From a virus (lineage: Duplodnaviria; Heunggongvirae; Uroviricota; Caudoviricetes): a stretch of DNA of 64,000 bases. Below the pieces are notes generated by a model, which did no database searches, was not told where the DNA came from, and saw only the letters and a list, made by a program, of their open reading frames with translations. Every line of letters starts with the position of its first letter. The stretch's first letter is position 1. Both the position numbers and the translations under genes were made by a program. This document shows, one piece after another, positions 1,678 through 41,295 of the stretch. Where the stretch lies: IMG/VR virus record IMGVR_UViG_2861079508_000001; one strand, 5' to 3'.

Positions 1678-1718
1678 ACCAACTCCTAGCTAACAGATGA
1701 AAGTATTCTTACAAAAAA

Positions 1719-1744: not shown

Positions 1745-1802
1745 AGGCGCAATAGTTCCCTATACGAAGATGCCGGGCTTATAGTCTGCCCGGCATTCAC
1801 CA

Positions 1803-4768: not shown

Positions 4769-4849
4769 GTGTTTTTCTTTTGTGGTTTGGCAAAAGAAAA
4801 GTTGTTTCACCAATGAATCAAGCGTGGAGGTGTTCTCCACGCTTATTTT

Positions 4850-6190: not shown

Positions 6191-6209
6191 GTGCTTTCCT
6201 TTGTTTTTT

Positions 6210-6225
6210 AAACAAATTGTTTTCT
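6210..6225. promoter_or_regulatory. motif 1 operator-like palindrome (AAACAAATTGTTTTCT)
   Basis: In the 43-bp gap upstream of the helicase gene start. Confidence 0.5.
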
Positions 6226-6233
6226 AGTATTAG

Positions 6234-6983: not shown

Positions 6984-6985
6984 CT

Positions 6986-7010
6986 GGTAGGTAGTTACTT
7001 ACTTATCACA
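6986..7010 (-). promoter_or_regulatory. motif 2 element
   Basis: GGTAGGTAGTTACTTACTTATCACA immediately upstream of gene 6234..6983. Confidence 0.45.
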
Positions 7011-7090
7011 ATGAGCGGATGATAGCGACTGGTGGCAGTTTTTGGAAGTGGAAACGGAAGGGAGTTGTTCTGGTGGTGTCTTTTAAAAGA

Positions 7091-7145
7091 CCTGCTTCCG
7101 TATATATTTAATAAGTTACTTATTATTTATATATACAGAAGCAGG
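7091..7145. repeat. 55-bp near-perfect palindrome, copy 1
   Basis: CCTGCTTCCGTATATATTTAATAAGTTACTTATTATTTATATATACAGAAGCAGG; identical copy at 41241-41295; centre AATAAGTTACTTATT is itself palindromic and motif-2-like. Confidence 0.6.
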
Positions 7146-7256
7146 CATAACTTGTCGTCTTAGACGCCCAGAAGCTCTACACTTTGAGCCTGTTAAATTG
7201 ATTAAAAACTTATGTGTAAAATAGAACGCATTAGTCAGTAGCAAAGAGATGCAATA

Positions 7257-16300: not shown

Positions 16301-17459
16301 CCGATGACGCTGCCGAACTGGCGGACGATGCGGCTGCCGTTTTTGAGGATTCTGCACGGGTTTCCGACGCTTTCGCGTTCGTTTCGGATGTCTTCGCTGC
16401 GGAAGCAGACCTCGCTGCTGCGCTGGCCTGTTCAGTGGCTTCGCCAGCCTTCGTTGTGGCTGTTGAAGCAGACGATGCGGCACTTTCTGCCGATTTTCCG
16501 GCGGCTGTGGCACTGGCTGAGGCCTGCCCGGCACTTGTTGACGCGGCACTGGCAGACGACGCAGCCGCTGTTTTTGAGCCTGCTGCAGCCGAGGCGCTCT
16601 GTCCCGCTGCCGTTTCAGAAGACTTGGCGTTCGTCTCGGACGTTTTTGCCGCCTTCGCGGAATTTCCTGCCGCCGTTGCCGAGGAAGCTGCGCTACTGGC
16701 GCTCGAGGATGCGTTCGTTTCTGATGATTTCGCTGCCTCTTTTGAGGCCGCCGCATCCCGGGCTGAGGTGGCAGCTTCTGACGCTTTCGTGGTCGCGGTG
16801 GATGCAGAAGTGGCTGCTGATTGTTGTGACGCTGCGGCATTCGTTTCAGATTTTTTCGCAGCAGTTGCACTCGCACTTGCGGCACTTTGTGAGGATGCCG
16901 CAGCGGATGCACTTTGAGACGCTTGAGAGGCTTTTTCTCCAGCGGTATTGGCGCTTTCTGCTGCTGCGGCAGCACTGGCCGCCGCCTCACGAGCTTTGTC
17001 GCCAGCAGCATCAATCGCGTCAGTGTTATTTTTATACCACTCAACGTTTTCGTTGTGCTCGTTGACGATCTGCATTAGCGGCTTAACGGTTACTTCTGAA
17101 CCGTCTTCACGCTCGATTGTCACCTCATCCAGAGCAGTCAACCAACTGCGCATGGACTTGGAATCAGCCGACATACGCGACATTAGTGCTGTAAAGCGCG
17201 CGCTAAACTGTGTTAAGTCGCCTTCATAGGTCGTAATGATTCGGCACGGAACTTCAGACTGAGTTTCGCCGGTATAAGGTTCTGAGAGAACAATGTTCGT
17301 ATCACTGGTTACGCGCTTGATCTCATACAGCTTATTGTCGGGGCCAATGACGATCATCCCCGGCAACACACCATTAGCTGTTACGTTCCAGGCTGTCCCT
17401 GCCCCAACCAGAGTATTGCTGCCCTGTGTAAATGTGATAGTACCTTCCCTGTACCACAT
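13302..17459 (-). CDS. long tail fibre protein with C-terminal intramolecular chaperone (peptidase S74-type) domain
   Basis: 1385 aa; ~280-aa Ala/Ser/Thr-rich low-complexity region; tandem phage-fibre repeats (ASTATKLQTAR.IGGV.FDGSANINLPGVNTTGNQNTT x3-4); C-terminal YGLIAEEVGEIAPQYV-type chaperone motif. Confidence 0.75.
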   Translation of the reverse strand: MWYREGTITFTQGSNTLVGAGTAWNVTANGVLPGMIVIGPDNKLYEIKRVTSDTNIVLSEPYTGETQSEVPCRIITTYEGDLTQFSARFTALMSRMSADSKSMRSWLTALDEVTIEREDGSEVTVKPLMQIVNEHNENVEWYKNNTDAIDAAGDKAREAAASAAAAAESANTAGEKASQASQSASAAASSQSAASASATAAKKSETNAAASQQSAATSASTATTKASEAATSARDAAASKEAAKSSETNASSSASSAASSATAAGNSAKAAKTSETNAKSSETAAGQSASAAAGSKTAAASSASAASTSAGQASASATAAGKSAESAASSASTATTKAGEATEQASAAARSASAAKTSETNAKASETRAESSKTAAASSASSAASSASSASASKDEATRQASAAKGSATTASTKATEAAGSATAASQSKTAAESAATRAEAAADRAEEIAGAVAMEDASLTTKGVVKLSSAVDSTSESLAATPKAVKAANDNANSRVPSNRKVNGKALTADITLTPKDIGTLNSVTMSFSGGAGWFKLATVTMPQASSIVYIALIGGAGYNVGSPHQAGISELVLRAGNGNPKGITGALWKRTAVGLTNFAWINTSGDTYDIYVEIGNYATRVNIHWDCTANATVSIYTSPTYSASKPSSVTDGVVYTMYSTHQKPTPLDIGALPTTGGTVSGPLSVTGGITGTLNGNASTATKLQTARSIGGVGFDGSANINLPGVNTTGNQNTTGNAATATKLQTARTIGGVSFDGTANINLPGVNTTGNQNTTGNAATATKLQTARTINGVSFDGSANISLSPANIGCPASPTGWLTTGSNGGAITTAQLVTLLQNNGAFNTKSWIARCAWAYANSATIPNSETGCGVIPLAGAVIEVFNNGSSSNNYTIRITTATTTSVSGALTNAEFIYVFNGTDYSPGWRRVYNTKNKPTASDVGALPLTGGTLSGGLTSSGEIISKYANGFRIAYGSFGFFIRNDGSNTYFMLTASGDTLGSWNGLRPITINNTSGAVSIGNGLNVTGGVNGSLNGNASTATKLQTARNINGVKFDGSGDININTLVSRGRVTALSGSTQGTAGIQMYEAYNNSYPTMYGNVLHMKGASAAGEGELLIGWSGTSGAHAPVFIRSRRDNTGAAWSAWAQVYTAKDSIPGVNTTGNQNTTGNAATATKLQTARKIAGVAFDGSADITLTAANLNAYTKTEVTNLLSSYASRSSLTGYSGNLDIIAETLVVKSGGSGGFAIWDIGTTTSGANMYIDPNPGINTVWRSTSSRRYKKDIETLQDRYADELLSLRPVWYRSICRGDRKDWGYYGLIAEEVGEIAPQYVHWREPTNNDSPEDISSNGMVAEGVMYERLVVPLIHHIQQLTKRVEELETKLNSPKE
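15050..15420 (-). repeat. tandem ~110-bp coding repeats inside tail fibre gene
   Basis: Encode the repeated ATKLQTAR.IGGV.FDG fibre motif. Confidence 0.6.
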
Positions 17460-17551: not shown

Positions 17552-20500
17552 TTACAGAAGGCCAATTCTTACTCGTAGGACGTTGTTATCGTCATAAACG
17601 TCAATCCGCTGACCATTTATGACCAGTCGCCCATTACCCCCGCTATTACCGTTGATCTCAAGCGTTCCATTTTTGCCGAACCGCCATCCAGATCTACCGC
17701 TAACAAAATTGGTAGATTGCAGATCGCCTACTTTTGCATTGGTGATTGTGCCATCCTTGATATACGCACCATTCATATAGGCGATACTGTTTTCGATAAC
17801 AAATGGCGTGGTGATCTTCCCGTTAACAGAGTTGACCAAACCAAACCTGTCAGCCTGCACCAAAAACTGAGAAAGGCCAGTGGTGTCGATACCAAGCGCA
17901 ATACCAGCAACATACTTCTGCCCTCCGCTCGTTGAAGTTTCCATTTTCAACGTCCACGCGGTTGACACTTTTTTGTTGGTATCAGCAATAGCTGTTGCCT
18001 GCTGTTGAATTGTCGCGGTATTTCCATCCACCTCTGCTTTCAGAGTATCGATTCGCCCACTCAGAGCATTATCTGCCTGCGTTCTCGCTGTCGTTTCAGT
18101 TGTTACCGCCGCGGAAATGTTGGCTGCCGTTTGAGACTCTAAGTTTGTGATTTGAGTCGCCAATGCAGCATCTTGCTCTGTACGCGTTTTCGTTTCGGTT
18201 GCTACAGCCGCTTTAATATCCTCTTTGTATTGAGAGGTCAGCTTGGTGATCTGAGACGACAACGCCGAGTCAGCATCAGTTCGAGCCTGCGTTTCAACTG
18301 CAACGGCCGCACTAATATCTTTCGCTGTCTGTGCTTTTAAACTTGAAACCTCTTTTGTTAAAGCGGTATCACCATCAGCACGAGCCGTTGTTTCTCTGGC
18401 AAGAGATGCCTCGAGATCATTAGCTTTTGCTGTAAGAGACGAAATCTGAGTGGACAATGCACTATCGGCATCAGTCCTTGCCTTTGTCTCTACAGCAACC
18501 GCTGCGGCAATATCAGTTCCGGTTTGTGCTCGCAGGCTGTTAATTTCTCGTGAGAGCGCCTGGTCAGCACTTGCTCTGGCCTCCTGCTCCTGAGTGATGG
18601 CAGCGGATATATCACCGTCAACCTTTGACTGAAGCTGGTTTATTTGTTTGGCTAACGCAGAGTCCCCGCTTGCTCGGGCCTCCTGCTCACTACGTATTGC
18701 AGCAGAAATATCATCATCAACCTTTGCCTGAAGTTGGGTGATCTGGCTTGCCAGAGCCGAATCTTCCGTTGCTCGGGCTTCTTGCTCTTCCTTAATAGCT
18801 GCGACGATATCGTTGCTTACTTTCGACTCAAGCTGAGTGATCTGTGTCGTCAGAGCTTCATCGGCAGATGTGCGAGCCTCCTGCTCTGTACTAATCGCCG
18901 CGCTGATATCTCCTTCAAACTTAGATTGCAGCTGAGTGACACGCTTTGCCAACGCTTCATCGCCATCGGCACGAGCGGTGGACTCTTCCAGAATACTGGC
19001 CTTAATGTCTTCGCCAATTTCTACGCGAATTTCCTCAACCTTCGTGGCCATTGCAGACATATCATCAGCAAAGGTTTTCTGTGTTGTTGCGATCTTCGCG
19101 TTATTGACCATCTGCTTGTGCTGGTCTTCATCTTGACGAAGAGCTAGGTCAATATTTGTTTTGGCTAACGCCTCAATGTTCGTAGTCAGTTCTGCACTGG
19201 CACGATCGACCTCTGCAACCGTCTTTTTCATTTCTTCAACGGCAGCGGAGCTTTCCTCTACCGTTGACTGCAACACTTCCAGTTGTTTAGCGTTTGCAGC
19301 ATCGCCTTCAACACGAGCCTCGCTTTCCTTAGCAATAAGAGCCGCCGCTTCATCTCTTGCAGCCTTTATTGCCTCGACTGTATTAGCGAGAGCTTTATCG
19401 TGTTCAGATACGGTGTTTTCGATTTCAACAATTGCAGCATCAGTAGCATCAATTTTTTCAAACGCTTCATTGACCTTGTCGATCGTTGCCGAAACCTCAC
19501 CTTTAAGCTCGGTTTGTGCGTTCTCCAAAGCATCGCTACGCTCGTTGAATTTTATTTCAAAACCCGCGAGGTTATCGCTGAACTGCTTATCTAATTCAGC
19601 TATATCTTCCTTAACGTCGTTTACCGACCCCTCCAAAGATTCGACGCTCTGGTTGATATGCTCATTTAACTCGTCAACTGCTTCTTGAGAGGCTTTGCTG
19701 TTGATGTCCTCAAGCAGAGCCTGACCAAGCTCGGAAGATGTAATTTTGCCAGCCAGGAACGACAGTACATCGCGAGTTGTCGCCTCTGTACCCAAGTTTG
19801 AGTTCGGAGGGCTTAACATACCTCGCTTGTTCGATGCTCGAACCCAGTAATACCACGTTTCGCTATCCCCAAGACCAGCATGTGTAAAGGTGGTGCTTGC
19901 AGACTCTGCGATCAGTTTCGCCGTATCCAGATTGTTGGTCTGGGATGCGTAAACATTAATGTGATCAAGGTCTACCGAATCTGGATTAACCCAATTCAGT
20001 ATCACATTACGATAGTCTCCAACGGCCGTTAATGACGTTGGTGCATCCGGCGGTGTCATTGTGCCCAGCACCTGATAAACGGTACTGATAATTTCTGTTT
20101 TTTTACCGTTGAATGAAACCGCATACAGTTGGAAGTCGTAGCGTCCATTCTCCGCGACATTAACGATTTCGTATTGTTCTTCGGTTACACGCGCCGATTG
20201 CCAGTTCGATACATTGTTTTCATCAGAACGTCGCCAACTGATCCAATACTCTGGAGATTTCCCTTCCCATGTTGCAGTCAGTTTTACTGACAGGTTGCCC
20301 GGGCTTGAGAGGTAAGTCCCTTCAGTGATTTGCAAATTAGACGGCTTGGAGTAAGTCGGGTCCAATACCGTCGTATTCTGCGGGATAAGCGTTGCACCAT
20401 TGTCGATCGCCTCATATTTAGACGGATTGTTTTCAACAGCGGTGATGTCAAAGCTACCCGACGTTTCCCCCTGAGCGATGTTAACGATGCGAACGCGCAT

Positions 20501-22270
20501 AGGTTCGAGATCTGGTTCTGTAATTGTCCAGACACCGTTCAAAACAGGCGTTTCCGCTGACGACAGAGCTTTTGAAAACGTAACCTTTGTTATGTTTTCG
20601 CCAGTTTCAAGAACATCGCGCTCAACGATTTTGCCTTCCTGATTCAATATCCGAATAAAGCTGCCGCTTTTAGCTAACGACACAGGCGCATCGAGAGTGA
20701 TGCTGTTTTTGGTAAACTCCACAATTCGACCGGAGTTACGTTTACCTGCACGATATTTGTTCTGAATCAGAACGGTTTCACCGGGCATCAGAAATGAGGC
20801 GTCTAAGCCGGCAGTAAATGTAATTACATCCGACTCCATTCTGGCGGTATACAAAAGCCACAAACCAACTCGGTGAGCCTGGCCTCGGCTTGTACATCCA
20901 AATGCTACGACTTCTGTTTTACGCTCACCATAACGGCGCATTGCGTCCTGATCTTCAACGTACTCGATGTTTTGCTTATAACCGTCCTCCTTGTTGTTGT
21001 AGGTTACGAGCGCAACGGATGGGCGATCTTTACGCGCAGAACCTTTATAGGTAAACAGTCCATCTTTGACGTTGGAGTTGGTAAACATCATTACTGGATC
21101 TGATGGGCTATCCTGCATGATGTTAACCATGCCACCAGCCCAAAACACCATGCCGCGGAATGCACCGGCAATATCCTGAATTAATCGGTATGCGTCTTGT
21201 CGACTGGTGATCTGCGTATTGATTGCAAAGCGTTTCTCTTTACCCCCAAAGCCATCATCGACCTCTTCGTCACAATATCGACCAATCTGGTAGAGCTGGC
21301 CGAGGTCAATCATGGATTCCGACACAAATTGCCCAAGACCATACCGAGTATTGGTAAGCAAATCGTAGAGAATCCACGCAGGGTTTGAAGAAGACAACAG
21401 CTTAAAAGTACCGTCCCATACGCCGACATAAGTATTGGTGTATTCGTTGTCTCGGATTTTGATACCGCGCACCAAATACGAACGGGAAGGCATTGTGCTA
21501 CCAAACTGCTCTGAATTGACCTTCAAGCCAACAAGAGCAGAGTTAGGGTAGTTCATTGGCGTGTCGACAATCTCACCTATGGAATCAACCCATGTGTCGT
21601 TGTAGAGGTACTGGCTACTGTTATCATCTGTAAGACGAATCACCCTAACCTTGTATGCACGACCAGGCTTAGGTAGTTTCAGCTCATAGCTACGGTAATA
21701 CACGCCGGTTTTCTTTGCCGTTAGCGTGATATCAACGCTTTTCTCACCTTCTGCCACTACATCAGAAAATGTTGCGTCTCCGTTGGCGATCTGGAATTTG
21801 TACTTCACCGTAGTGCCATTTGTATCGCCAGAGCTTTTATCAACGCTACGTAAAGAGGGGAATTTCATGATGACACGAACGCGATCAGCTTCATCGTTAT
21901 CGATTGAAACCGTAACGTCGTGTGTTTTTTTAAGCTGAATATTTACGGACTTAGGCGTTTCGACAAAATCAAAACCAGCCATTGGCGTCTGGTCTTGTGA
22001 GCCGTCACGAAAATCCCATGTAATACCGCTGAAGTTGGAAGAGCCATCTTCATTCAAGATCGGTAAATCGTCGATGAAGATCGACTTTGCGCCATTTACC
22101 AGGCCACCGATAACCCCCTCGCCAAGAAGGTCGAGGATGGCTGCCATAGCACGAGAATTGACAGTATCATCAGCTTCAACCGGGGTACGGCTGGAGCTTT
22201 TACTTTTCTTGCCACCAGCACCGGCAATAAGAAGCGGTAATTTTTTCTTCTTGAACTGTTCCATGTCCAA
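17552..22270 (-). CDS. tail tip / host-specificity protein (lambda gpJ-like) with tandem coiled-coil repeat insertion
   Basis: 1572 aa; AFGCTSRGQAHRVGLWLL and KYVAGIALG...SQFLVQADRF match conserved gpJ blocks; ~12 tandem ~30-aa repeats (D.SAA...EQEARA..D.AL..QI..L..KV). Confidence 0.75.
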   Translation of the reverse strand: MDMEQFKKKKLPLLIAGAGGKKSKSSSRTPVEADDTVNSRAMAAILDLLGEGVIGGLVNGAKSIFIDDLPILNEDGSSNFSGITWDFRDGSQDQTPMAGFDFVETPKSVNIQLKKTHDVTVSIDNDEADRVRVIMKFPSLRSVDKSSGDTNGTTVKYKFQIANGDATFSDVVAEGEKSVDITLTAKKTGVYYRSYELKLPKPGRAYKVRVIRLTDDNSSQYLYNDTWVDSIGEIVDTPMNYPNSALVGLKVNSEQFGSTMPSRSYLVRGIKIRDNEYTNTYVGVWDGTFKLLSSSNPAWILYDLLTNTRYGLGQFVSESMIDLGQLYQIGRYCDEEVDDGFGGKEKRFAINTQITSRQDAYRLIQDIAGAFRGMVFWAGGMVNIMQDSPSDPVMMFTNSNVKDGLFTYKGSARKDRPSVALVTYNNKEDGYKQNIEYVEDQDAMRRYGERKTEVVAFGCTSRGQAHRVGLWLLYTARMESDVITFTAGLDASFLMPGETVLIQNKYRAGKRNSGRIVEFTKNSITLDAPVSLAKSGSFIRILNQEGKIVERDVLETGENITKVTFSKALSSAETPVLNGVWTITEPDLEPMRVRIVNIAQGETSGSFDITAVENNPSKYEAIDNGATLIPQNTTVLDPTYSKPSNLQITEGTYLSSPGNLSVKLTATWEGKSPEYWISWRRSDENNVSNWQSARVTEEQYEIVNVAENGRYDFQLYAVSFNGKKTEIISTVYQVLGTMTPPDAPTSLTAVGDYRNVILNWVNPDSVDLDHINVYASQTNNLDTAKLIAESASTTFTHAGLGDSETWYYWVRASNKRGMLSPPNSNLGTEATTRDVLSFLAGKITSSELGQALLEDINSKASQEAVDELNEHINQSVESLEGSVNDVKEDIAELDKQFSDNLAGFEIKFNERSDALENAQTELKGEVSATIDKVNEAFEKIDATDAAIVEIENTVSEHDKALANTVEAIKAARDEAAALIAKESEARVEGDAANAKQLEVLQSTVEESSAAVEEMKKTVAEVDRASAELTTNIEALAKTNIDLALRQDEDQHKQMVNNAKIATTQKTFADDMSAMATKVEEIRVEIGEDIKASILEESTARADGDEALAKRVTQLQSKFEGDISAAISTEQEARTSADEALTTQITQLESKVSNDIVAAIKEEQEARATEDSALASQITQLQAKVDDDISAAIRSEQEARASGDSALAKQINQLQSKVDGDISAAITQEQEARASADQALSREINSLRAQTGTDIAAAVAVETKARTDADSALSTQISSLTAKANDLEASLARETTARADGDTALTKEVSSLKAQTAKDISAAVAVETQARTDADSALSSQITKLTSQYKEDIKAAVATETKTRTEQDAALATQITNLESQTAANISAAVTTETTARTQADNALSGRIDTLKAEVDGNTATIQQQATAIADTNKKVSTAWTLKMETSTSGGQKYVAGIALGIDTTGLSQFLVQADRFGLVNSVNGKITTPFVIENSIAYMNGAYIKDGTITNAKVGDLQSTNFVSGRSGWRFGKNGTLEINGNSGGNGRLVINGQRIDVYDDNNVLRVRIGLL
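18000..18960 (-). repeat. tandem ~90-bp coding repeats inside gpJ-like gene
   Basis: Encode ~12 copies of a 30-aa coiled-coil unit. Confidence 0.6.
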
Positions 22271-22281
22271 AAAATCCTTGA

Positions 22282-22872
22282 TTACATAAGCTGGTCGATG
22301 GTGATAGAAGAACTCACGACCTGTGAGCCAACTAAAATTTCCTCGCCATAGATAAGCTGTACAGGGTTCCCCTGGTTTGTTGTGTTTTGAGGTCCATCAA
22401 AGTAATAAGAGTTCGAGTTATCCGCCTGCCTCACACTTTCGTTAGTGGCTTGCGGAGATATGATTTGCGCTATACCGCCCATCATCAGTGACAAACCGAG
22501 AGGCGCAAGAGCGGGCACCCATATCGAGGCAACCATTAATACTGCTCCAACAACCGTCTGAAACCATCCAAAAGCAGATCCACCACTTCCTCGCGGAACA
22601 GGGGTAATGCGGATTTTTGCAATATTGTCAGACTGCCCCATCATCTGATATTCACTCTCGTCCACAGACCACTTGTGGCCCTGTTTATTGGTGATCTGGA
22701 TGTGGTATCTGTCATAGGTTTTGATATTGCGCTTCATCCATGCTTTAAACCCAGGCTTGTTGGCCTCAATTAAATCCAGAGCCTGTTTTGTATTACGCAC
22801 CTTTAGATGCCAGTGGCGGCCAAAATGTTTGGCCATAGGGCCGCCAAGCTGCACATGAACTAACTCAGACAC
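22282..22872 (-). CDS. tail assembly protein (gpI-like)
   Basis: 196 aa with C-terminal hydrophobic region; position between K-like and J-like genes. Confidence 0.5.
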   Translation of the reverse strand: MSELVHVQLGGPMAKHFGRHWHLKVRNTKQALDLIEANKPGFKAWMKRNIKTYDRYHIQITNKQGHKWSVDESEYQMMGQSDNIAKIRITPVPRGSGGSAFGWFQTVVGAVLMVASIWVPALAPLGLSLMMGGIAQIISPQATNESVRQADNSNSYYFDGPQNTTNQGNPVQLIYGEEILVGSQVVSSSITIDQLM

Positions 22873-23684
22873 GTCTCATCTCCCTTGAGCAAGTCTCTGT
22901 GACGCAAGTGATGCGTCGTATGTTTCTGATACATTCCGCCGTAATAAGCACGACAACTTAGGCGGTCGATCTGGTGATGAAGAATCATTCCATCGCCGAT
23001 ATAAACCGCGCAGTGGTCAGGCATTTTCCCGTATTGGATAAAGAATACGTCCCCACGTTGAGGCTCTGTTCCGGGCGCAAGACGCACCAATCCCTCGTTA
23101 CGGTAGTTCTGATCGAGAATGTCGTTATCGCCGGTGTACCACGATGGAATATGCAGGTGTGCGTTCGGGTTTAGTTCGACGTTAAACTCACGCTTCAAAT
23201 AGTCCCGACACAACATCCAGCAATCAAATACGCCAAATACATACGGTCTGCCCAGGTATGGCATTTCGAAACCATCAGGTGTGATCACATTCATCTCGCT
23301 AAAATGGAAAGGGGCATCTCCCTCAACATTCTTGCGAATAGCCAGAATCATCCACGGAACTTCCGTCGCTTCGCAGCCTGCACGATCGGCATCAGATGCT
23401 TCTGCTGATTCATCAGTATGTGAATGCCAGATTGCGATAACATCACCCGCATCCTCTGCCGCCATAATGTCGTCAACGTGCATTACAAAAGTGTTCTGCG
23501 GGTTCTCCGAAACATTCCGCGCTTCCATAAAGCGATATTTGTCGCCATTAGTTCTAACCAGAAAGCCACACGCTTCATTAGGGTAGCGATTTATGGCGCA
23601 GAGATAGATTTGCTGCATAACGTCAGAGCCAAGCTCAGGGATTGCTTTATTACCCATACCGCGTAGCTCCAATAAATCCGCCAA
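22860..23684 (-). CDS. tail assembly protein (gpK-like; MPN/JAMM + NlpC/P60-like)
   Basis: JAMM motif HSHTDESAEASDAD (H-x-H-x7-S-x2-D) followed by Cys-containing C-terminal domain; gene order M-L-K-I-J. Confidence 0.65.
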   Translation of the reverse strand: MADLLELRGMGNKAIPELGSDVMQQIYLCAINRYPNEACGFLVRTNGDKYRFMEARNVSENPQNTFVMHVDDIMAAEDAGDVIAIWHSHTDESAEASDADRAGCEATEVPWMILAIRKNVEGDAPFHFSEMNVITPDGFEMPYLGRPYVFGVFDCWMLCRDYLKREFNVELNPNAHLHIPSWYTGDNDILDQNYRNEGLVRLAPGTEPQRGDVFFIQYGKMPDHCAVYIGDGMILHHQIDRLSCRAYYGGMYQKHTTHHLRHRDLLKGDETCLS

Positions 23685-24381
23685 AATGGATCACACCGTC
23701 GGCAAAATAATTCCGACGCGCATTACAGGCGTCATAACGTTTTGTGCAGTAATCCGCACCAGACATAGACGTCTGCTGGTTATTTTTGTCGAAATATGGA
23801 CCGGTATAGCCGCATTCTGGCCCTCGGTATTTCCACGGGCAGGTGTTTTTAATGATCTGACGATACGGCAGTTGCACCCCCATCAAATCGAACACACTGG
23901 ACAATTCAAACTCGACAACCTGATGAGTTTCGAGAGTTTTCTGTTCGATAAACCACATTTCATCCGGGAAATGTTGGTTTGGATCTGCTGTTGGGTTGCC
24001 GTCTTTAAAATTAACGGCATCGAGGAAGCGAGCCAGCGTCATCTTGCGAATAATGCGGCAGCCAACAAGATCGTCGTTCGCCTGAACTTCCGCAGAGACG
24101 GTTCCGGCAAAGTTCGATACCTGAATTTTTGGACGTGGCAACGTTCCCTGGCCCGTTTTGTCAAAGCCTGATGCTTTTATTGGCCACGGCTCGTATGTCA
24201 CTCCTTGCCAGACGACCGGTTGCATCAGTTCGTTTGTTCCGGCGTGGAAGAATAGCTTCCCCCCTGAAGTTGTGTTCGACATATCCAGTACGAACAACTC
24301 AATGAGTGCAGAGGGAGATAAGCTCTGAATATCAGCTTTAATTCCCATTGTTTCATCCTTGAAATAAGTAGGCGCTAACAT
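23650..24381 (-). CDS. minor tail protein (gpL-like)
   Basis: 243 aa; position and size in conserved tail-tip gene order; Cys cluster near C-terminus. Confidence 0.5.
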   Translation of the reverse strand: MLAPTYFKDETMGIKADIQSLSPSALIELFVLDMSNTTSGGKLFFHAGTNELMQPVVWQGVTYEPWPIKASGFDKTGQGTLPRPKIQVSNFAGTVSAEVQANDDLVGCRIIRKMTLARFLDAVNFKDGNPTADPNQHFPDEMWFIEQKTLETHQVVEFELSSVFDLMGVQLPYRQIIKNTCPWKYRGPECGYTGPYFDKNNQQTSMSGADYCTKRYDACNARRNYFADGVIHFGGFIGATRYG

Positions 24382-24398
24382 CCTGTCAGCGCCACAAT

Positions 24399-24424
24399 GA
24401 TAGTAAATCAGTACTTACTTATCC
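24399..24424 (-). promoter_or_regulatory. motif 2 element
   Basis: GATAGTAAATCAGTACTTACTTATCC upstream of gpL-like gene. Confidence 0.45.
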
Positions 24425-24430
24425 AGATGC

Positions 24431-24766
24431 TTAAGCCTCAAATACTTGTCTGAATGTAGCAGTTAAGACACAGTACCCCTGATATCGCTTGACCGTATGA
24501 CTGTCACATACAACTACAATCTGCTTGCCTCTTGGATTAACCCAATAGAACGATTCAACGCCTGATCGCTCAGTCAGGAAGTCATCGATTGCATTAATTT
24601 CGTTGTATGATCTGGTAAAGGTTAACGACCATTCTTCTTTAATACGATTAAGACCTTGAGCCTGTCGCTGCTCGTAGTCATCACCAAAATTAAGTACCGT
24701 TACATTCGGTTTTACGCTTTTTTCAGATTCGTAATCTGGATACCAATTAAACGTTTGTCTTTCCAT
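24431..24766 (-). CDS. minor tail protein (gpM-like)
   Basis: 111 aa; position directly downstream of tape measure gene. Confidence 0.45.
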   Translation of the reverse strand: MERQTFNWYPDYESEKSVKPNVTVLNFGDDYEQRQAQGLNRIKEEWSLTFTRSYNEINAIDDFLTERSGVESFYWVNPRGKQIVVVCDSHTVKRYQGYCVLTATFRQVFEA

Positions 24767-24808: not shown

Positions 24809-27800
24809 TTAGTTACGTTGAGTGTTTGGGTTGAGAGATCCGCCAGGGCGTTTCTCTTGAGCGATAGTCTCAAGCGCGATTGCTTTCATCCGTTGAGCGG
24901 CATTGTTCCATATGCTTTCTGTATCGCCGGATTCAGTTGTGCTACCGTCACTATGGACGTTGATCTCAATTGATACCGGAGAAAGAACATTTCCTCCTCC
25001 ACTCATACCATCGGTACTGAGCGTTACAGGGATTGTTCGACCATCAGGCAATGGAACATACGCCTCATTCATATCGCCTTCCCCAAACAACGCCAATTGA
25101 GGTGAGTTGGCGATACCGCCTTTCTGGTATGCCCGGAGCGGGATCACGCCGTCTTTTCCGAATATGCCACCATTTGCAAACTTCGGAATTGCAGGAATAC
25201 CATTCGTGCCATCGGCAGCAGAACTGGTCAGATTGTTGAACCCGGAAGTTGAGCCAGAAGAACCGGACATCAATCCATCGAATCCACCACCAGCCCATAC
25301 TGAAACCAAACCAGATGCAACTGTCGCGCCGAAATTCAACCACTTATTACCAGAGCCGGAAGCATTAGCTCCAAGCATTGCAAACGCGGCAGACAGAGCG
25401 CCGGTAACAGAGCTGAGGTTCTGCATCGAGAAGATGGAGTCCTTCACTGCTTTTGTCTCAGCATCTTTGGCTTCGGTGCTATCAAATAGCCCCGATACCC
25501 AGCTACCAATCGCATTTGTTGCTGTGCCAATTGCGCTGGTGGTCTGCTGTGTTGTTTGCCCCAATCCAGTTACCGAACTGGACGTCTCCTTCGTGGCTTC
25601 TCCTACCGACTTGTCGCCATTAACAGTGTTGCCCATTCGTACACCTTGATTGGCAACGGCAGAAGCAACTCCAGTGAGCAAATTGCCACTCTGTGAACTA
25701 CCAGCTGCGGTGGTTCCCATCCCCAACATGTTCATTAGAGGCAGCGTGATTTGCGACTTCACGACCATATTGGTGATATCTTTCAAAATGGACTGAGATA
25801 GGCTGGAGAAGCTCATCTTCCCGTTAATAACGAAATCAGTCAGGACATCAGTTAAGCCACTAAACAAATCAGTCCAGGTGCTTTCGATCTGCTCTGCCAA
25901 GTTTTCGTATTCCAGTGCCAACTTCTGCGTCGCAGTCCCCGTCTCTTTAATAAGCGCGGTATTGCCAGCAGCAATCAGTTGATTGATTTTCTTTGTATAA
26001 AGCGCCACAACTTTAGGATCAGACGCCTTATCACGAAGTTCTATCAACGCTTTGAGATTGCGGTTGTAGGTGTCTTCGAAATCGGCAACTTTCTCTTCGC
26101 GAGACGGCGTATAGCCAGCACTAATAATGGAATCCGCCTCCGGTGCCCAAGTGGAGATCATCTGCTCAACATTGCGGCGATTAAACATCTCACGATATTC
26201 AGGTGTCGCATTTTTGAGGTCTTCAAGACGTTTTTTCGCCTTGTCGATCATCTCTTGAGTGATGAACTCGTTAGGAACCGCATTAGCCAAATCTGTCAGC
26301 GATTTCGTTGTATCGCGAAGAGACTGATCAAACGATACCGTAGCCTTAGAGCTTTCACCCATTTGCCCCATAAGCTGATCGGCTTTGTCCAGAGCCTTCT
26401 GGTATCCGGCTGCCAGTTTCTGTTGCGCTGCCTGTTCCTTCTTGGCCGCACGCTGCGAGGCGTTAGCTGATCGTTGGGCTGCTTTCTCGGCAGCTGCTGC
26501 ATCCTGTTCACGAGCTTTAGTTAGTGCAGCAATGGCTGCGGCACGCTCTTCATCGCTCATTTTCTCCAGAGAGCTGGCGCTGGATGCTTTCTGCAAATTA
26601 AGCTGCGTCTTGAGTTGTTTAGGCCCAATAATCGGCTTACCTTCGAAGTCCATCATCGGAGTGCCGTCAGGCAAAGTACGCTGATAAGTCGCAGAATTCA
26701 TCTGGTTTCGCATATATTGCGCCAACGCCTTCTGAGCAGCTTTATCAGTTGTACCTAACCCAAGAACAGTCCCCTGGTTTGACATTACGCCCTTACCAGT
26801 TTTGGCCGCGTTATCTCTCTCGAACTCTGCCTGAGTAAGTTCCTGAGCAACGGCTTCCAAATGCTCCTGATAACCACGAATACTGCCTTGCAGTTTCTGG
26901 ATTTGCTCGGTATTGCCATCCTTTTTGGCTTTTTCAAGCTGATCATTAAGAGTCGCGATTTGCTTCTCGGTCGCATTCTTACGAGAAGAAAGTGAATCAA
27001 CCAGTTTTTGCGCAGGCTCCAGATAGCTTTTGTTTACCGTTTCACGTAACGGTGCCAATAGCTTGTTCTTTTCGTCATCTGAAAGTGAACCGTCATCATT
27101 GATTTTCTGGATCTTATCCAGAGCCTCCTGCCGGGCTTTCACGAATGTTGCCGCGAAAATCTGGTTTTCCGCTCGAATTTTCTCAATCTGAGATTCGGCA
27201 GCCTCTTTAGCCAAACGCTTTGCTACAGCGCCGTCACCAAGAGCTATCGTGCCGGTTATCTTTTGATACTCTTCCTGATTTTTTTTCAGGCGTGCTTCGA
27301 TGTCAGCCTTCGACTCTTTGTGAGTAATAACACCGGCAGAGTTAGATACGTAATTAACACCCTCACCAGTTTTTAATGCTCGTTGATCAGCAAGAATCTG
27401 CTTTTCGAGCTTTTCTGCGCGGTCGGCCATTTGTGCACGTTTGGCCGCCGTCATCGCCTCTGGTATTTTCCTAATCTCGTCAACGACCTTTGAAGTTTCG
27501 CTGCGGAGCATGGTCATGTACGTGATTAGGCCAGCAACAGCTACAGTGGCAACTGTAAATGCTGCCCCTATAGGGTTTGCTGCAATGAACGCCGTTAATC
27601 CAGCAAAAGCGCCTTTAAGCCCCGTAATCGCCCCACGGATGGCGAAAATAAGAGAGGGGATCGGAGCCAGCCCCATACGTGCCGCACGATTGAATCGGGT
27701 TACTGCTGTAGCGCCGAGGTTAAATGGAGTCTGTATGGCGGTCGCCATCGTGGCAAAGGTGCTAACCATCTGGCTGCCTGCGCCAACTACCCCCATGATC

Positions 27801-28547
27801 CCTGCTCGCATCAGTTTGAACGCAACCATCGCGGCCACGACCTTACCGAGATTAATTACCAGCTCTTGGTTCTTTGCTAACCATTGAGCAAGCTGACGCA
27901 ACCCATCAATTGCCGTCGTTAACCCCGAGCCTAAAGAATTGGCAAACGAAATCCCTTCGGCGCTATTCATGATTGAAGCCAGTTCTTTCATCCCCTTCGA
28001 TAGAGAATCCAGATATCCGGCCTGACCAACCCGATCAGCAAATAACGTGAATGACGTCTGAAGTTGCGCCAGCGCACCTGTGTAGGTTTGCATCATGTCT
28101 TTCGCTGCGTTCTCATTCTCCGCACGCAGACCAACAAACATCAGAGACAACGCCTGTTTTGCCTCAACCGTACCGCTGGCAACGGCTTTAGTCAGTTCCC
28201 CCATAGTGATGCCTGCGGCGTCTGCCATTGCCTGCATCGCGTTAGGAACGGCTTCACCTAATTGCTGACGTAGCTCTTCCATTGACACAACGCCCTTACC
28301 GGACATCTGCTGAACGGCCACAGCCGCACGTTTCAACAGCTCACTATCACCACCAAAACGAGCAACGGAGTCCACCAGCGCCTTCAGAGAACCATCGGTT
28401 GGATCTAAGCCAGCAGAACGAAACTTCACGAAGGAATCTGTTAACGCCTGCATCGCGAACGGCGCATTTTGCGCCATGTCTACGATGTACTTCATATCAT
28501 CAGCGGCAGCCTGGCCAGGGTTGGACTTCTCCTTATTCAACCCTCGA
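24809..28547 (-). pseudogene. tape measure protein, 3' portion (gene interrupted by IS insertion)
   Basis: Long mostly helical ORF (1243 aa from an internal TTG) downstream of chaperone genes; reading frame is continuous with the 29858..30714 fragment once the IS and one TSD copy are removed. Confidence 0.7.
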
Positions 28548-28601
28548 TGAACCGCCCCGGGAATCCTGGAGACTAAACTCCCTGAGAAAGAGGTAAACAG
28601 G

Positions 28602-28928
28602 ATGACTAAAAATACTCGTTTTTCCCCCGAAGTCCGTCAGAGGGCGATTCGTATGGTTCTGGAAAGTCAGGGCGAATATGACTCACAGTGGGCGGCAATT
28701 TGTTCCATTGCCCCAAAGATTGGCTGTACACCGGAGACTCTGCGTGTCTGGGTACGCCAGCATGAGCGGGATACCGGAGGCGGTGATGGCGGGCTCACCA
28801 CCGCTGAACGTCAGCGTCTGAAAGAGCTGGAACGTGAAAATCGTGAACTGCGCCGCAGTAACGATATCCTTCGCCAGGCTTCCGCTTATTTTGCGAAGGC
28901 GGAGTTCGACCGCCTCTGGAAAAAATGA
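28602..28928 (+). CDS. IS3-family transposase OrfA (HTH/leucine-zipper part)
   Basis: 108 aa [23 protein letters not shown]...; I recognise this as the IS629/IS3-group OrfA; ends at an A-run slippery site. Confidence 0.8.
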
Positions 28929-29815
28929 TGCCACTGCTGGATAAGCTGCGTGAGCAGTACGGGGTCGGACCGCTATGCAGCGAACTGCATATTGCCCCGT
29001 CAACGTATTACCACTGTCAGCAACAGCGACATCATCCGGATAAACGCAGTGCCCGTGCGCAGCGCGATGACTGGCTGAAGAAAGAGATACAGCGCGTATA
29101 CGATGAAAATCATCAGGTGTACGGTGTGCGTAAAGTCTGGCGTCAGTTGTTACGGGAAGGTATCAGAGTGGCCAGATGCACTGTGGCACGTCTCATGGCG
29201 GTTATGGGACTTGCCGGTGTTCTCCGGGGTAAAAAGGTCCGTACGACCATCAGCCGGAAAGCCGTTGCCGCAGGCGACCGCGTAAACCGTCAGTTCGTGG
29301 CAGAACGACCTGACCAGCTGTGGGTGGCTGATTTTACTTACGTCAGCACATGGCGGGGCTTCGTCTATGTGGCGTTCATCATTGATGTGTTTGCCGGATA
29401 CATCGTGGGGTGGCGGGTCTCATCGTCTATGGAAACGACATTCGTGCTGGATGCTCTGGAGCAGGCGTTATGGGCCCGTCAACCGTCCGGCACAGTCCAT
29501 CACAGTGATAAAGGTTCTCAGTATGTATCGCTGGCCTACACACAGCGGCTTAAGGAAGCCGGATTACTGGCATCAACAGGAAGTACTGGTGACTCGTATG
29601 ACAACGCGATGGCGGAGAGCATCAATGGCCTTTACAAAGCGGAGGTAATACACCGTAAGAGCTGGAAAAACCGGACAGAAGTGGAGCTGGCCACACTCAC
29701 GTGGGTGGACTGGTATAACAATCGACGATTGCTGGAAAGGCTGGGCCATATCCCACCGGCAGAAGCAGAAAAAGCTTATTATGCTTCCATCGGAAACGAT
29801 GATCTGGCAGCCTGA
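28925..29815 (+). CDS. IS3-family transposase OrfB (DDE catalytic part)
   Basis: 296 aa overlapping orfA in the -1 frame at AAAAAATGA; integrase-type DDE core (e.g. [16 protein letters not shown]). Confidence 0.8.
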
Positions 29816-29857
29816 GTTCACAGATAAAACACTCTCCAGGAAACCCGGGGCGGTTCA

Positions 29858-30714
29858 CGAAGCATCACCCGCATACGTTCCATTTCGGCCGCAGCTTCAA
29901 CAATAGGCTTCTGCCACCCAAACATGATGTCAGTAACCGTTCTGGCTGCATCTCCGATCTCGCCAAGCAGGAAAATGTTGCCACGAAGGCCAGAGAACAT
30001 ACCTCCTTCGTTACTTTTACCGCTATGGCCAGAAGCGCCGCTACGCCGCCCGCTACCACCATCGCCACTTCCAGATGTACGAACGCGTACCGGCTTGCTA
30101 ATCAGTTGCTGACGTCCGATAACTTCGTCCATCTGCTCACGAACCTTTTTCAGTCCCTCGGCAGCCTGACTCGTTGTGACACCCCAATTACTGAGTCGCT
30201 TCGTCGTGGTATTAAGGCGCGTATTCATGCCACTCACGGACGCAGAGGCTTCTTTGACCTCCGTACCAAAGCGGCTTGCGCTTTTGCTTGCATAGGTCGC
30301 CCAATCAGAGAAATCATTTAGCTCTGATTGCACTTTACGTAATGACGCGGTGAGTTTATCTACTGAAGAAGTTGTCGTATCGACGCGCTCAATCAGGGCT
30401 TTAAGACCAGAATTGAGGCTGGTGATGTTGCCACGCATTTTACGCGTAGCATCTGAAGCAAGCTCAAAACCGGCAGCTACATCCTGTAGTTTATCTGCTG
30501 TAGAATCGAGCTTGCTTTCCAGAACGCCAATGATACGGGCGACCGAACCCAAAGAGCGTTCAAAGGTTTGGATTTTTTGAGCAGGCTTTGTTACCTGCTC
30601 ACCAAATCGAGTAAGCAGTTTCCCCGCACGATCGATTGACGCTGTAAACTGTTTGTCTTCCAGCGACAGGATAAACTCTACGTTTTGTGACATTCCCTTG
30701 TCATCCTCTGCCAA
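29858..30714 (-). pseudogene. tape measure protein, 5' portion (truncated by IS; last 13 codons of ORF are IS-derived)
   Basis: ORF 29818..30714 reads from TMP start into the IS right end; codon 285 ends in the CGA target duplication. Confidence 0.7.
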
Positions 30715-30970
30715 ATATTTGCATCAGTTGCTCTTTGGCGTCAGGGTCTGCCTTATCCTGGCTTGGATCGTAGACTTTATCTGTTACGACTGGTCTTCCA
30801 ATCCTGAGTTGCAAACCCTCCATGAACGCCTTCACAGCCTCGCCATCCGCCTGGGACGCACGAGCGACTTGTAAGTTGCGGACATCCTCTTCCGCACGCA
30901 GACGGTCTATATTGCGACTGAGCATCCAGAACATCGTGAGAGGAACGTTCAGTAGCTCTAATGGCGACAC
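30701..30970 (-). CDS. possible tail assembly chaperone (gpT-like frame)
   Basis: 89-aa ORF between G-like gene and TMP; may be expressed by frameshift from upstream gene as in lambda G/GT; not verified. Confidence 0.3.
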   Translation of the reverse strand: MSPLELLNVPLTMFWMLSRNIDRLRAEEDVRNLQVARASQADGEAVKAFMEGLQLRIGRPVVTDKVYDPSQDKADPDAKEQLMQIFGRG

Positions 30971-31050
30971 GGCGTAGTGAGCAACTACACGACTGAAATA
31001 GAATCCGAGATCTATTGAGACGGTCCTTGTCCCGGATTCATCGCGGGAAA

Positions 31051-31368
31051 TTACTTTGCCCCTTCGCCAGCCGCTTTTTCGTTTTCTTCATCAATCACTT
31101 CCATAGCGAAGGTGAAGATCTGCTGGAGTTGCGGAACAGTCAGTTTTTCAAGAACTTCATCAGGCACTGAAGGGATAACCTTACGAACCAGATCTGCATA
31201 AGCTGTCACTTGCTCAACAGGAGACATGTTCATGAGATCTTTGCCTTCCATCTGCTTGATGGAAACGAACAAACCTACCGTCATTTCAACGATGGGATAT
31301 TCCTGACCGCCAAATTTGATGCTTTTCTTCGGAGGCAGAATGGAATCGAGATCGAGTAATTTGGTCAT
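31051..31368 (-). CDS. tail assembly chaperone (gpG-like)
   Basis: 105-aa acidic protein immediately downstream of major tail protein gene. Confidence 0.45.
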   Translation of the reverse strand: MTKLLDLDSILPPKKSIKFGGQEYPIVEMTVGLFVSIKQMEGKDLMNMSPVEQVTAYADLVRKVIPSVPDEVLEKLTVPQLQQIFTFAMEVIDEENEKAAGEGAK

Positions 31369-31423: not shown

Positions 31424-32170
31424 TTAATCTGCGGAGTTAATCGTTACTGACTTAGTAGCCTTCTTAGAACCGCTATTGCTGGTGAAGGAGATGTTTGCAG
31501 TACCCTGCGCCACACCGCGCACAAGACCCGTTTGATCTACCGTGGCCTTTTCCTGGTCTTCGGATTCCCAAACACCGGTTTTGTCTGCGGCATCAGCTGG
31601 AGTGATTTCGGCTGTCAGTTGCACAGTTTCTCCAGCTTTTACGGTTGGAGATTCCGGTTTGATCGACACGGTTTTTACCGGTTTAGGGCCGCTCATTCTT
31701 CCCAGAACGCCTTCGTCATCAGGGTACGCACTGAACTGAACAGAGAACACACGAACATCATCAGACTGGTAAGTCATGGTGAAGTTACCTGCGGTCGCAG
31801 CTTTCGGGATGGTCAGAACGTAGTCGGTAGTGTCCTGCGGAGTCAGAACCAGCTCTTTGGCTACGTCGATCAGGTTGACACCCTGTGCGGAAGTGATGGT
31901 CACAGCGTTGTCGTCTTCGTTCAGAGTAGACCCCGGCATCAGATCGACCATATTTTTCAACACAGACTCGGCCAGCGGCGCAGTAATGGTAATGTTACGA
32001 CCCTGCACCAGCTCGGACATAATTGTCTGCCCGTGCTGGTCGACAGTGACTTTCAGCGTTTCAGTGGCTACTTCAACCTGAACACCACCTTTGGTGTAAC
32101 CCAAATCCACACCACCAAACGACACCTTACAGGCACCAAGTTTGATGTTTTTTACATGGGTATTAGACAT
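31424..32170 (-). CDS. major tail protein with C-terminal Ig-like (Big_2) domain
   Basis: Start set at ATG preceded by AAGGAG; C-terminal segment VKAGETVQLTAEITPADAADKTGVWESEDQEKATVDQTGLVRGVAQGTANISFTS matches Big_2 pattern. Confidence 0.6.
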   Translation of the reverse strand: MSNTHVKNIKLGACKVSFGGVDLGYTKGGVQVEVATETLKVTVDQHGQTIMSELVQGRNITITAPLAESVLKNMVDLMPGSTLNEDDNAVTITSAQGVNLIDVAKELVLTPQDTTDYVLTIPKAATAGNFTMTYQSDDVRVFSVQFSAYPDDEGVLGRMSGPKPVKTVSIKPESPTVKAGETVQLTAEITPADAADKTGVWESEDQEKATVDQTGLVRGVAQGTANISFTSNSGSKKATKSVTINSAD

Positions 32171-32206
32171 TGATGGAAAACTCCTTTTTCCGTTAATTCT
32201 ACGCAT

Positions 32207-32629: not shown

Positions 32630-33103
32630 TTAACCTCTCGTAAATCCGGCTTTTCTGGCAGCCTCAAGAATCGCTTCTGAGAACTGCTTCTCGCTAATTT
32701 CCACCGCTCTTTCCAGAAAGTGTGGCCCAACACGGGGTTTAACACCGGCAATTGGTGGGTTTGTCACGTTCTTCATTCGAGAAAGATAACCGAGTCGGTA
32801 TTTACCCAGCTCCATGTACTTAGCATAGTCACCTACTTCTACGCCCGGATGCCCCTGACGTGGTTTTGCTCCAGACACAGAAAGCTCAATACGCAGCCCT
32901 GAATAACCTTCTTTAATCACCCTGGCAAAGATGGCTGTCTCCAGAGATCCGGTTTCCAGCGGGGCCATTGCACGGCTGAGGCGCTCAACCAAACGCGCCA
33001 GCTTTTCCATGTCCCGAATAAGATATCGCTTAAATGCTTTCTGGCTGTTGTTGAGTCTATTCCCCGCACGTTTGAACTGATGCGCATCGTATTTCAGACC
33101 CAT
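32630..33103 (-). CDS. hypothetical head-tail joining protein
   Basis: 157 aa; position in morphogenesis operon. Confidence 0.4.
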   Translation of the reverse strand: MGLKYDAHQFKRAGNRLNNSQKAFKRYLIRDMEKLARLVERLSRAMAPLETGSLETAIFARVIKEGYSGLRIELSVSGAKPRQGHPGVEVGDYAKYMELGKYRLGYLSRMKNVTNPPIAGVKPRVGPHFLERAVEISEKQFSEAILEAARKAGFTRG

Positions 33104-41204: not shown

Positions 41205-41240
41205 GGGTTGTTTAATTAGGTCTGGGCATGTCTTATTAAG

Positions 41241-41295
41241 CCTGCTTCCGTATATATTTAATAAGTTACTTATTATTTATATATACAGAAGCAGG
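41241..41295. repeat. 55-bp near-perfect palindrome, copy 2
   Basis: Identical to 7091-7145; lies in the non-coding region just upstream of the small terminase gene. Confidence 0.6.

Follow-up and report, generated by a model that had tools for sequence, protein, structure and literature searches.

We analyzed the tail region of a 64,000-nucleotide stretch of DNA (the window), which covers 64 kb of an element of about 115 kb. The tail module was found on the minus strand in the lambda-like gene order V-G-T-H-M-L-K-I-J, and its tape measure protein (TMP) gene is split by a complete insertion sequence (IS). The features of the region are as follows.

28548..29857, plus strand: full insertion sequence, an IS629 isoform of the IS3 family, 1310 bp long
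28548..28561, plus strand: left terminal repeat (IRL), TGAACCGCCCCGGG, a perfect 14-bp inverted repeat
29844..29857, minus strand: right terminal repeat (IRR), matching IRL at 14/14 positions, or at 23/25 bases when extended
28602..28928, plus strand: orfA, 108 aa, encoding the HTH portion of the transposase that binds DNA (Pfam HTH_Tnp_1, E=1.8e-12)
28925..29815, plus strand: orfB, 296 aa, DDE catalytic part (Pfam HTH_21 and rve, E=1.8e-27)
28883..28999, plus strand: ALIL pseudoknot (Rfam RF01497), full-length match, 120.2 bits, E=1.1e-30
28545..28547, no strand: left copy of the target-site duplication, CGA (single CGA at the empty site in pSJC33-2)
29858..29860, no strand: right copy of the target-site duplication, CGA (the same single CGA in pSJC33-2)
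29818..30693, minus strand: 5' fragment of the TMP gene, with the start codon annotated in pSJC33-2
24809..28547, minus strand: 3' fragment of the TMP gene, about 1245 codons (Pfam: most of TMP_3, and Tape_meas_lam_C)
30701..30970, minus strand: T-like tail assembly chaperone ORF, paired with the G-like gene and lying in the -1 frame with respect to it
31051..31368, minus strand: G-like tail assembly chaperone gene, assigned by position and synteny alone, with no Pfam match
31424..32206, minus strand: major tail protein gene (Ig-like domain), from the annotation of the 99.9% identical pSJC33-2
17552..24766, minus strand: tail-tip genes M, L, K (C40 peptidase), I and J-like, all open (pSJC33-2 annotation)
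24431..24766, minus strand: M, within the tail-tip genes (Pfam Phage_min_tail, E=2.6e-35)
17552..22270, minus strand: J-like gene, within the tail-tip genes (pSJC33-2 annotation)

The original prediction of an IS629-like element with intact transposase ORFs and conserved termini was correct to the base. The IS ends in TGAACCGCCCCGGG on one side and CCCGGGGCGGTTCA on the other. Allowing up to two mismatches, the TGAACCGCCCCGGG motif occurs at just two places in the window, where 0.2 would be expected by chance, and two matches were reached in 0 of 100 shuffles; the window thus carries a single IS629 copy. Both ORFs are open, with orfB shifted by -1 from the frame of orfA. A run of six A residues (28920-28925) is located at the orfA/orfB overlap within the span of the ALIL pseudoknot, which scored well above the RF01497 gathering score of 50 and is predicted to signal the programmed -1 frameshift that yields the OrfAB transposase.

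To place the IS, we compared it with the annotated IS629 copy of pO157 Sakai, used as the reference instead of the original Shigella sonnei sequence. The two share 96.0% nucleotide identity, with 52 substitutions and no indels; OrfA differs by 2 aa and OrfB by 10 aa, and the ORF lengths are equal. By the ISfinder convention, isoforms have at least 95% nucleotide identity to the reference. The window IS also shares with IS629 (isoforms IS1203 and IS3411) its 1310-bp length, terminal repeats, ALIL pseudoknot and 3-bp target duplication. It therefore combines the hallmarks of IS629 and the IS3 family: a size of about 1.3 kb, TG...CA ends, orfA and orfB with a frameshift signal, a 3-bp duplication and at least 95% identity. 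Similar copies are labeled 'IS1203 family' by PGAP. Copies with at least 99% identity were found in 135 of 7023 IS-matching E. coli records, so the window IS belongs to a minority isoform, and no fewer than 10 further E. coli replicons contain 100% identical copies. From its intact ORFs and the identical copies at many loci, the IS is predicted to be transposition-competent. Members of the IS3 family move by a copy-out-paste-in route via a circular intermediate.

The window was found to be 99.9% identical to, and collinear over 62.7 kb with, the circular E. coli plasmid pSJC33-2 (NZ_CP080257.1). This plasmid is 113 kb long; its ParB-like genes lie within the part collinear with the window, and its RepB gene lies outside it. 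Compared with it, the window carries the IS in the TMP gene and lacks 12 bp, in frame, in the J-like gene; the other differences are a small number of SNPs and indels in homopolymers. pSJC33-2 and pSLy3-type relatives share with the window the lambda-like order of the tail genes as well as the TMP. At the nucleotide level, the 3' part of the TMP gene is related to that of CMS-2020a (99.2%), Cyrano (pLF82; 96.8%), PhiR41_1 (95.7%) and SSU5 (79.4%). We took a pSLy3-type phage-plasmid to be a single circular replicon of about 85-134 kb that combines a phage structural module with genes for partition and replication, the type name following a published scheme (PMC12977533). On the basis of its sequence, we assign the element to the SSU5-related (pSLy3-type) phage-plasmids of E. 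coli, and we infer that this particular copy is in the plasmid state.

We then examined the insertion site. The IS is antisense to the minus-strand TMP gene and tail operon. When the flanks were aligned to the IS-free site of pSJC33-2, both fell on one CGA (32843-32845 of that plasmid), which shows that the CGA repeats are a true target duplication, as originally proposed. Of 229 E. coli records, every one a plasmid, 228 matched the empty-site query as one contiguous stretch. Many E. coli genomes hold several IS629-type repeats (median 4 places per genome) and such repeats are a classic source of misassembly, so a mis-joined repeat in the plasmid contig could be suspected, the more so as no other public record searched contained the exact IS junction. 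However, not a base is missing from either end of the IS, its flanks follow pSJC33-2 in perfect collinearity, and a misjoin would not produce a duplication of three bases that are single in the empty site. Equivalent genuine insertions also occur in closed plasmids. We therefore regard an assembly artefact as highly improbable.

The genuine insertion also appears to be recent, in agreement with the earlier reading. The flanks are 100% identical to pSJC33-2 across the gene region, identical copies of the IS exist elsewhere, and within the structural module the IS is the sole disruptive difference from pSJC33-2, the rest being SNPs and the one in-frame 12-bp indel. The exact junction had no match in PLSDB, GTDB representative genomes or JGI metagenomes, and exact-protein look-ups for both truncated TMP products returned no match, suggesting that this insertion allele is absent from those collections.

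Removal of the IS and one CGA was found to restore a single open frame of 1530 codons from TTG 30714, so the predicted in-frame rejoining and length both hold from that start. The choice of start does not: ATG 30693 is likelier, giving a protein of 1523 aa that matches the single 4572-nt CDS annotated at the same site in pSJC33-2. From this ATG the 5' fragment contains 278 native codons (285 from TTG 30714), and the break falls after codon 278. The fragment had been described as gaining 13 IS-encoded codons and a stop. The stop and the 13 codons touching the IS were found, but only 12 of them add new residues: the first is a hybrid CGT codon that still encodes Arg, followed by 12 IS-encoded codons (EPPRVSWRVFYL) and TGA. 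The predicted product is an N-terminal stub of 291 aa.

Given only the two ORFs in the window, the fragments might be read as naturally separate genes. This was refuted, and we assign it practically no probability. One CDS encodes the TMP in pSJC33-2 and in virtually all of the 232 homologous records, and it was uninterrupted in 60 of 60 sampled E. coli records. In the intact homologue, TMP_3 (E=4e-27) and Tape_meas_lam_C (E=6e-13) were detected and both were also found in the window fragments. In the intact protein, TMP_3 extends from residue 264 to residue 451 and bridges the IS break, whereas the 3' fragment retains only profile positions 24-190. The TMP of Cyrano is likewise one protein of 1525 aa (PMC9928086). 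The signature domains and the position between the G/T chaperones and M-L-K-I-J identify a lambda gpH-like TMP; the continuous ORF typical of siphovirus TMPs, with a length that corresponds to that of the tail, is split by the IS in the window and continuous in homologues, making the window gene a pseudogene. In line with this, PGAP annotates the IS-split TMP of two other plasmids, CP117972 and OZ501614, as a pseudogene. In total, the gene was located at 238 places in 232 complete E. coli genome records, all of them on plasmids and none chromosomal. Just upstream, the T-like frame stays open past the end of the G-like gene; in pSJC33-2 this ORF is annotated as a 74-aa hypothetical protein.

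These observations suggest how the insertion would act. The IS629 isoform would have entered codon 279 of the 1523-codon TMP gene, duplicating its CGA target, and TMP translation would end 12 codons into the IS, yielding the 291-aa stub. The remaining codons would lack a good start, the break lying within the conserved TMP_3 domain. To our knowledge, a siphovirus tail tube cannot be assembled without a complete tape measure protein. The tail-tip genes M-L-K-I-J are downstream of the IS and transcribed in the same direction as the TMP gene, and polarity may lower their expression, given roughly 1.3 kb of IS RNA that is antisense and untranslated. A scan around the IS detected no outward promoter and no intrinsic terminator above the shuffled background, so this polarity would be purely Rho-based. 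After induction, the most to be expected would be heads that are filled with DNA but tailless, and no infectious particles would form. The known biology of siphovirus tape measure proteins gives sound reason to expect that the tail module is probably non-functional, and virion production is predicted to be lost through the TMP disruption.

We considered whether the split gene could still support tails, either through a restart in the 3' fragment, yielding a tape measure and tails of reduced length, or with the help of a related phage in the same cell that complements the defect. In-frame internal TMP deletions give shorter but assembled tails in lambda and TP901-1, the downstream tail genes of the window are intact, and the 3' fragment contains weak restart candidates (AAGG 5 nt before the GTGs at 28375 and 28288). 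However, a restart would leave out the whole N-terminal 278 residues and a part of the TMP_3 domain, it would follow about 1.3 kb of untranslated antisense IS, and the first ~55 codons of the fragment were found to contain no in-frame start codon preceded by a Shine-Dalgarno sequence at suitable spacing. The pseudogene calls of PGAP for equivalent alleles also argue against a working gene. A functional split gene is thus very unlikely.

The loss of tails would not threaten the persistence of the element, since it is probably a plasmid-borne phage-plasmid whose replication and partition functions would be untouched, allowing vertical persistence as a plasmid. Phage-plasmids are known to turn into plasmids via loss-of-function mutations (PMC12977533). 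In the related Cyrano, virion genomes were detected by qPCR, and siphovirus particles with ~259 nm tails, which fit a 1525-aa TMP, were attributed to it by elimination (PMC9928086). On the other hand, one E. coli SSU5-like (pSLy3-type) phage-plasmid was not packaged despite having no known lesion (PMC9600943). This suggests that the element in the window may already have been inactive before the IS insertion.

Taken as a whole, the insertion of an IS629 isoform into a phage-plasmid TMP gene, with loss of tails and persistence of the plasmid, is with high probability the best explanation. A tool based on gene content would score the element as a complete phage-plasmid; its infectious spread is very likely impossible, and it is best counted as a vertically inherited, non-mobilizable plasmid. 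The window is thus one more case of IS elements making phage-plasmids defective. The event is real but ordinary, both of its components being already known, and it is of little surprise because a public plasmid matches the backbone at 99.9% identity and equivalent lesions are already annotated publicly. IS629 has been reported in general terms to inactivate genes in phage-derived elements of E. coli O157, as small-scale structural polymorphisms (PMC9943667), although integrated lambdoid prophages are concerned there and an extrachromosomal phage-plasmid here. We found no paper addressing IS-disrupted tape measure genes in phage-plasmids.

To look for comparable events, we searched related plasmids for IS629-group insertions, with detection centred on the structural region. 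Including the window, at least 8 independent insertions in tail genes were identified (at least 7 in other plasmids). They affect the TMP gene (window, OZ501614 and CP117972), the T chaperone gene (CP053233), the major tail gene V (CP056801) and the J gene (CP053233, CP025894 and CP028430). Their sites and target duplications differ, and the IS variants are 26-55 nt apart. NZ_CP117972.1 (E. coli B-1109) and NZ_OZ501614.1 (NRZ96606) resemble the window in the gene hit, the IS group, the orientation and the 3-bp duplications, and all three TMP insertions lie inside the first 860 bp of the gene. The window-equivalent sites are 30276-78 (TTG) and 30105-07 (GTT), respectively, compared with 28545-47 (CGA) in the window, and the IS variants have 28 and 55 mismatches to the window IS. 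These differences in site and IS variant indicate that the three insertions were independent.

This recurrence raises the possibility that the tail genes of pSLy3-type elements (J, TMP, T and V) are a preferred or selected target of the IS629 group, with recurrent domestication from phage-plasmid to plasmid instead of a neutral, isolated event. Only about 14 of the 232 TMP-bearing E. coli records were estimated to hold any IS629-like sequence (by inclusion-exclusion, 7023+232-7241), yet in two of them the IS lies within 600 bp of the window's site. The IS-excision enhancer (IEE), reported in >30% of E. coli assemblies, promotes IS629 excision (PMC9943667), which could make such domestication reversible in hosts that carry IEE. 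If the preference were true, it would mean a recurrent lock-in to the plasmid lifestyle in IS629-rich E. coli lineages; if the reversal were true, virion production would be an on/off trait. We consider this reading unlikely. The search was centred on the structural region and partly biased to same-strand copies, and CP028430 carries the IS at 7 places, most of them outside tail genes. Simple tolerance would suffice to explain the pattern, because no genes are larger than those of the tail, and a plasmid can do without them. Furthermore, a TMP knockout does not prevent host lysis, so no host-level selection is apparent. The clustering near the window's site is suggestive, and we make no hotspot claim because the count of independent insertions lacks a known denominator and its ascertainment is biased.

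Neither a common target motif nor a common orientation speaks for a preference. No shared motif was apparent at the three TMP insertion sites. The three TMP insertions and the major tail gene insertion have the same orientation, but the coverage-based IS searches join same-strand pieces only and are therefore biased to same-strand copies. A uniform orientation was rejected as a real pattern on this ground and because the copies in the T gene of CP053233 and the J gene of CP028430 were found in the opposite orientation.

The minus-strand tape measure gene (TMP) of this element is interrupted by an insertion sequence (IS) of 1310 bp. The components of the interrupted gene are as follows.

24809-28547 (-), TMP 3' fragment
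28548-29857, IS
28602-28928 (+), orfA, 108 aa, with Pfam domain HTH_Tnp_1
28883-28999, ALIL frameshift-stimulating pseudoknot, full-length Rfam match (120 bits vs a gathering score of 50)
28925-29815 (+), orfB, 296 aa, with HTH_21 plus rve, overlapping orfA in the -1 frame
29818-30693 (-), TMP 5' fragment

The left end of the IS is TGAACCGCCCCGGG, and the right end is its reverse complement at 14/14 bases, or 23/25 if extended. Allowing up to two mismatches, this terminal motif occurs just twice in the 64-kb window, at the two IS ends; 0.2 matches are expected by chance, and none of 100 shuffles contained two. The orfA/orfB overlap carries an A6 run, and CGA lies directly outside each IS end (28545-28547 and 29858-29860). 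The sequence matches exactly the intact IS629-like element with a CGA duplication described in the original prediction. The element is an intact IS629 isoform, since it is 96.0% identical to the annotated IS629 copy of pO157 (O157:H7 Sakai), with 52 substitutions, 0 indels and equal ORF lengths; the products differ by 2 aa in OrfA and 10 in OrfB. It has 100% identical copies on at least 10 further E. coli replicons, both chromosomes and plasmids; 4262 out of 5426 complete E. coli genomes contain IS629-type sequence. PGAP labels similar copies 'IS1203 family'.

When the IS and one CGA were deleted in silico, two minus-strand ORFs fused into 1530 codons in frame from a TTG at 30714, reproducing the predicted rejoining. 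We compared the flanks with an uninterrupted homologue, as had been proposed, using the circular E. coli plasmid pSJC33-2 (NZ_CP080257.1; 113,446 bp). Its positions 4287-67010 are collinear with the window at 99.9% identity, and the IS is the sole large difference. Both IS flanks align on the same three bases, a single CGA at 32843-32845; the CGA repeat therefore represents true duplication of the target at an empty site. This makes it unlikely that the IS is an assembly artefact, as a misjoin makes no target duplication with perfectly collinear flanks.

The possibility that the two fragments are naturally separate genes was also considered, and was refuted by the homologues, which carry one gene. 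In pSJC33-2, PGAP annotates a single 4572-nt 'tape measure protein' gene (1523 aa) with an ATG start equivalent to window position 30693. A 1200-bp empty-site query was contiguous in 228 out of 229 complete E. coli genomes having it. The whole TMP gene was found in 232 records and was uninterrupted in all 60 spans sampled. The intact TMP has Pfam matches to TMP_3 (residues 264-451) and the lambda-type Tape_meas_lam_C (1150-1215). The IS breaks the gene after codon 278, within TMP_3, of which the 3' fragment keeps just profile positions 24-190.

Nucleation and sizing of the siphovirus tail tube require a complete tape measure protein (lambda gpH and relatives). The split gene would instead yield a 291-aa stub ending ...MLR-EPPRVSWRVFYL-stop. 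The stop had been foreseen, but of the 13 codons ascribed to the IS only 12 are IS-encoded, the other being a hybrid Arg codon. Residual tail function through translational restart of the 3' fragment is improbable: within its first ~55 codons no in-frame start codon has a Shine-Dalgarno sequence at the proper spacing, and TMP_3 is cut by the IS. The tail operon transcript would also cross ~1.3 kb of untranslated antisense IS ahead of the tail genes M-L-K-I-J, which makes Rho-dependent polarity on these genes plausible; in a terminator scan, no intrinsic terminator exceeded background.

The insertion is the sole visible lesion, because all structural ORFs other than TMP are open, as expected from the claim that the rest of the element is intact, and the structural module otherwise departs from pSJC33-2 only in SNPs and, within the J-like gene, a single 12-bp indel that keeps the frame. 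It is also judged to be recent, as originally proposed, given the perfect target duplication, the intact IS and flanks 100% identical to pSJC33-2 over the gene. We infer that on induction the element would very probably fail to produce infectious particles with tails, and that it would persist as a plasmid, which fits the published view that loss-of-function mutations can decay phage-plasmids into plasmids (PMC12977533).

The original prediction did not place the element, which is most probably a phage-plasmid. Homologous places in complete E. coli genomes were on plasmids in 238 out of 238 cases and on chromosomes in 0, the plasmids being mostly ~100-115 kb. pSJC33-2 encodes a RepB initiator, ParB-like partition genes, DNA polymerase III alpha, nrdAB and tRNAs together with head genes, terminase and a lambda-like V-G-T-H-M-L-K-I-J tail module (G/T, chaperones; H, TMP; J, tail tip). 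Among phage records, the 3' part of TMP matched Escherichia phages CMS-2020a (99.2% identity), Cyrano (96.8%) and PhiR41_1 (95.7%) and Salmonella phage SSU5 (79.4%). In E. coli, the SSU5-related phage-plasmids of this group are called 'pSLy3-type' (PMC12977533). Virion production has been reported for Cyrano (pLF82), and siphovirus particles with a ~259 nm tail, which its single 1525-aa TMP fits, were attributed to it (PMC9928086). Mitomycin C treatment led to no packaging of another SSU5-like (pSLy3-type) element of E. coli (PMC9600943).

Searches focused on the structural region, which could miss some of the copies on the opposite strand, uncovered seven or more additional independent insertions of IS629-group elements in tail genes of related public phage-plasmids (CP117972, OZ501614, CP056801, CP025894, two in CP053233, and CP028430), each at its own site with its own 3-4 bp duplication. 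They include the following (window-equivalent positions).

20623-21421, J gene, CP053233, CP025894 and CP028430
30105-30107, TMP, OZ501614, duplication GTT; split TMP annotated by PGAP as pseudogene
30276-30278, TMP, CP117972, duplication TTG; split TMP annotated by PGAP as pseudogene
30783-30786, T-like chaperone gene, CP053233, opposite orientation
31990-31992, major tail gene, CP056801, duplication TAA

Direct comparison of four copies (window, CP117972, OZ501614 and CP056801) showed them to be 26-55 nt apart from one another. CP025894 also carries IS100 in the J gene and IS2 in a tail fibre gene. By inclusion-exclusion, IS629-like sequence of any kind is present in just ~14 of the 232 E. 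coli records with TMP, which hints at a regional preference. A hotspot or selection for such insertions nevertheless seems improbable, and tolerance is the default explanation, because of the search bias, the large size of the tail genes and their dispensability for plasmid life, and the lack of an obvious host benefit from TMP knockout. Since IEE promotes IS629 excision (PMC9943667), reversal of the TMP insertion is conceivable. Neither part of the finding is new: the phage-plasmid is known, and the lesion class is present and annotated in public plasmids.

Several other features of the window were observed. A ~55-bp core, CCTGCTTCTGTATATATAAATAATAAGTAACTTATTAAATATATACGGAAGCAGG, which is a near-perfect palindrome, is identical at 7077-7145 and 41229-41295, 34 kb apart. 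Both copies are intergenic and lie upstream of minus-strand genes, namely replication genes (helicase/primase) in one case and terminase/structural genes in the other; they may serve as a common operator or as a regulatory hairpin. At 30701-31368 (-), the -1 frame stays open over the final ~12 codons of the G-like gene (105 aa) and on into the T-like ORF, which would fit the conserved G/GT tail-chaperone frameshift, but no canonical slippery heptamer was identified at this junction. The J-like tail-tip gene has a 12-bp in-frame deletion at 21451 relative to pSJC33-2, with AGTTTGACGGTA absent and the ORF open (1572 aa). At 55105-58396, chromosome-type metG (methionine--tRNA ligase) and apbC adjoin an IS1 remnant, also in pSJC33-2, and are unusual housekeeping cargo for a phage-plasmid. 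Indels of 1-2 bp relative to pSJC33-2, mostly in homopolymer runs, occur at 47929, 50764, 51774, 52013, 54093, 54376 and 54557 and may be sequencing errors in either record; at 51774, the extra CG in the window would repair a gene labelled 'frameshifted' by PGAP in pSJC33-2. The tail fibre ORF at 13302-17459 is open (1385 aa), and its pSJC33-2 counterpart, one SNP apart, is flagged by PGAP as partial, 'missing N-terminus', a flag that probably stems from an artefact of annotation and not from a lesion.
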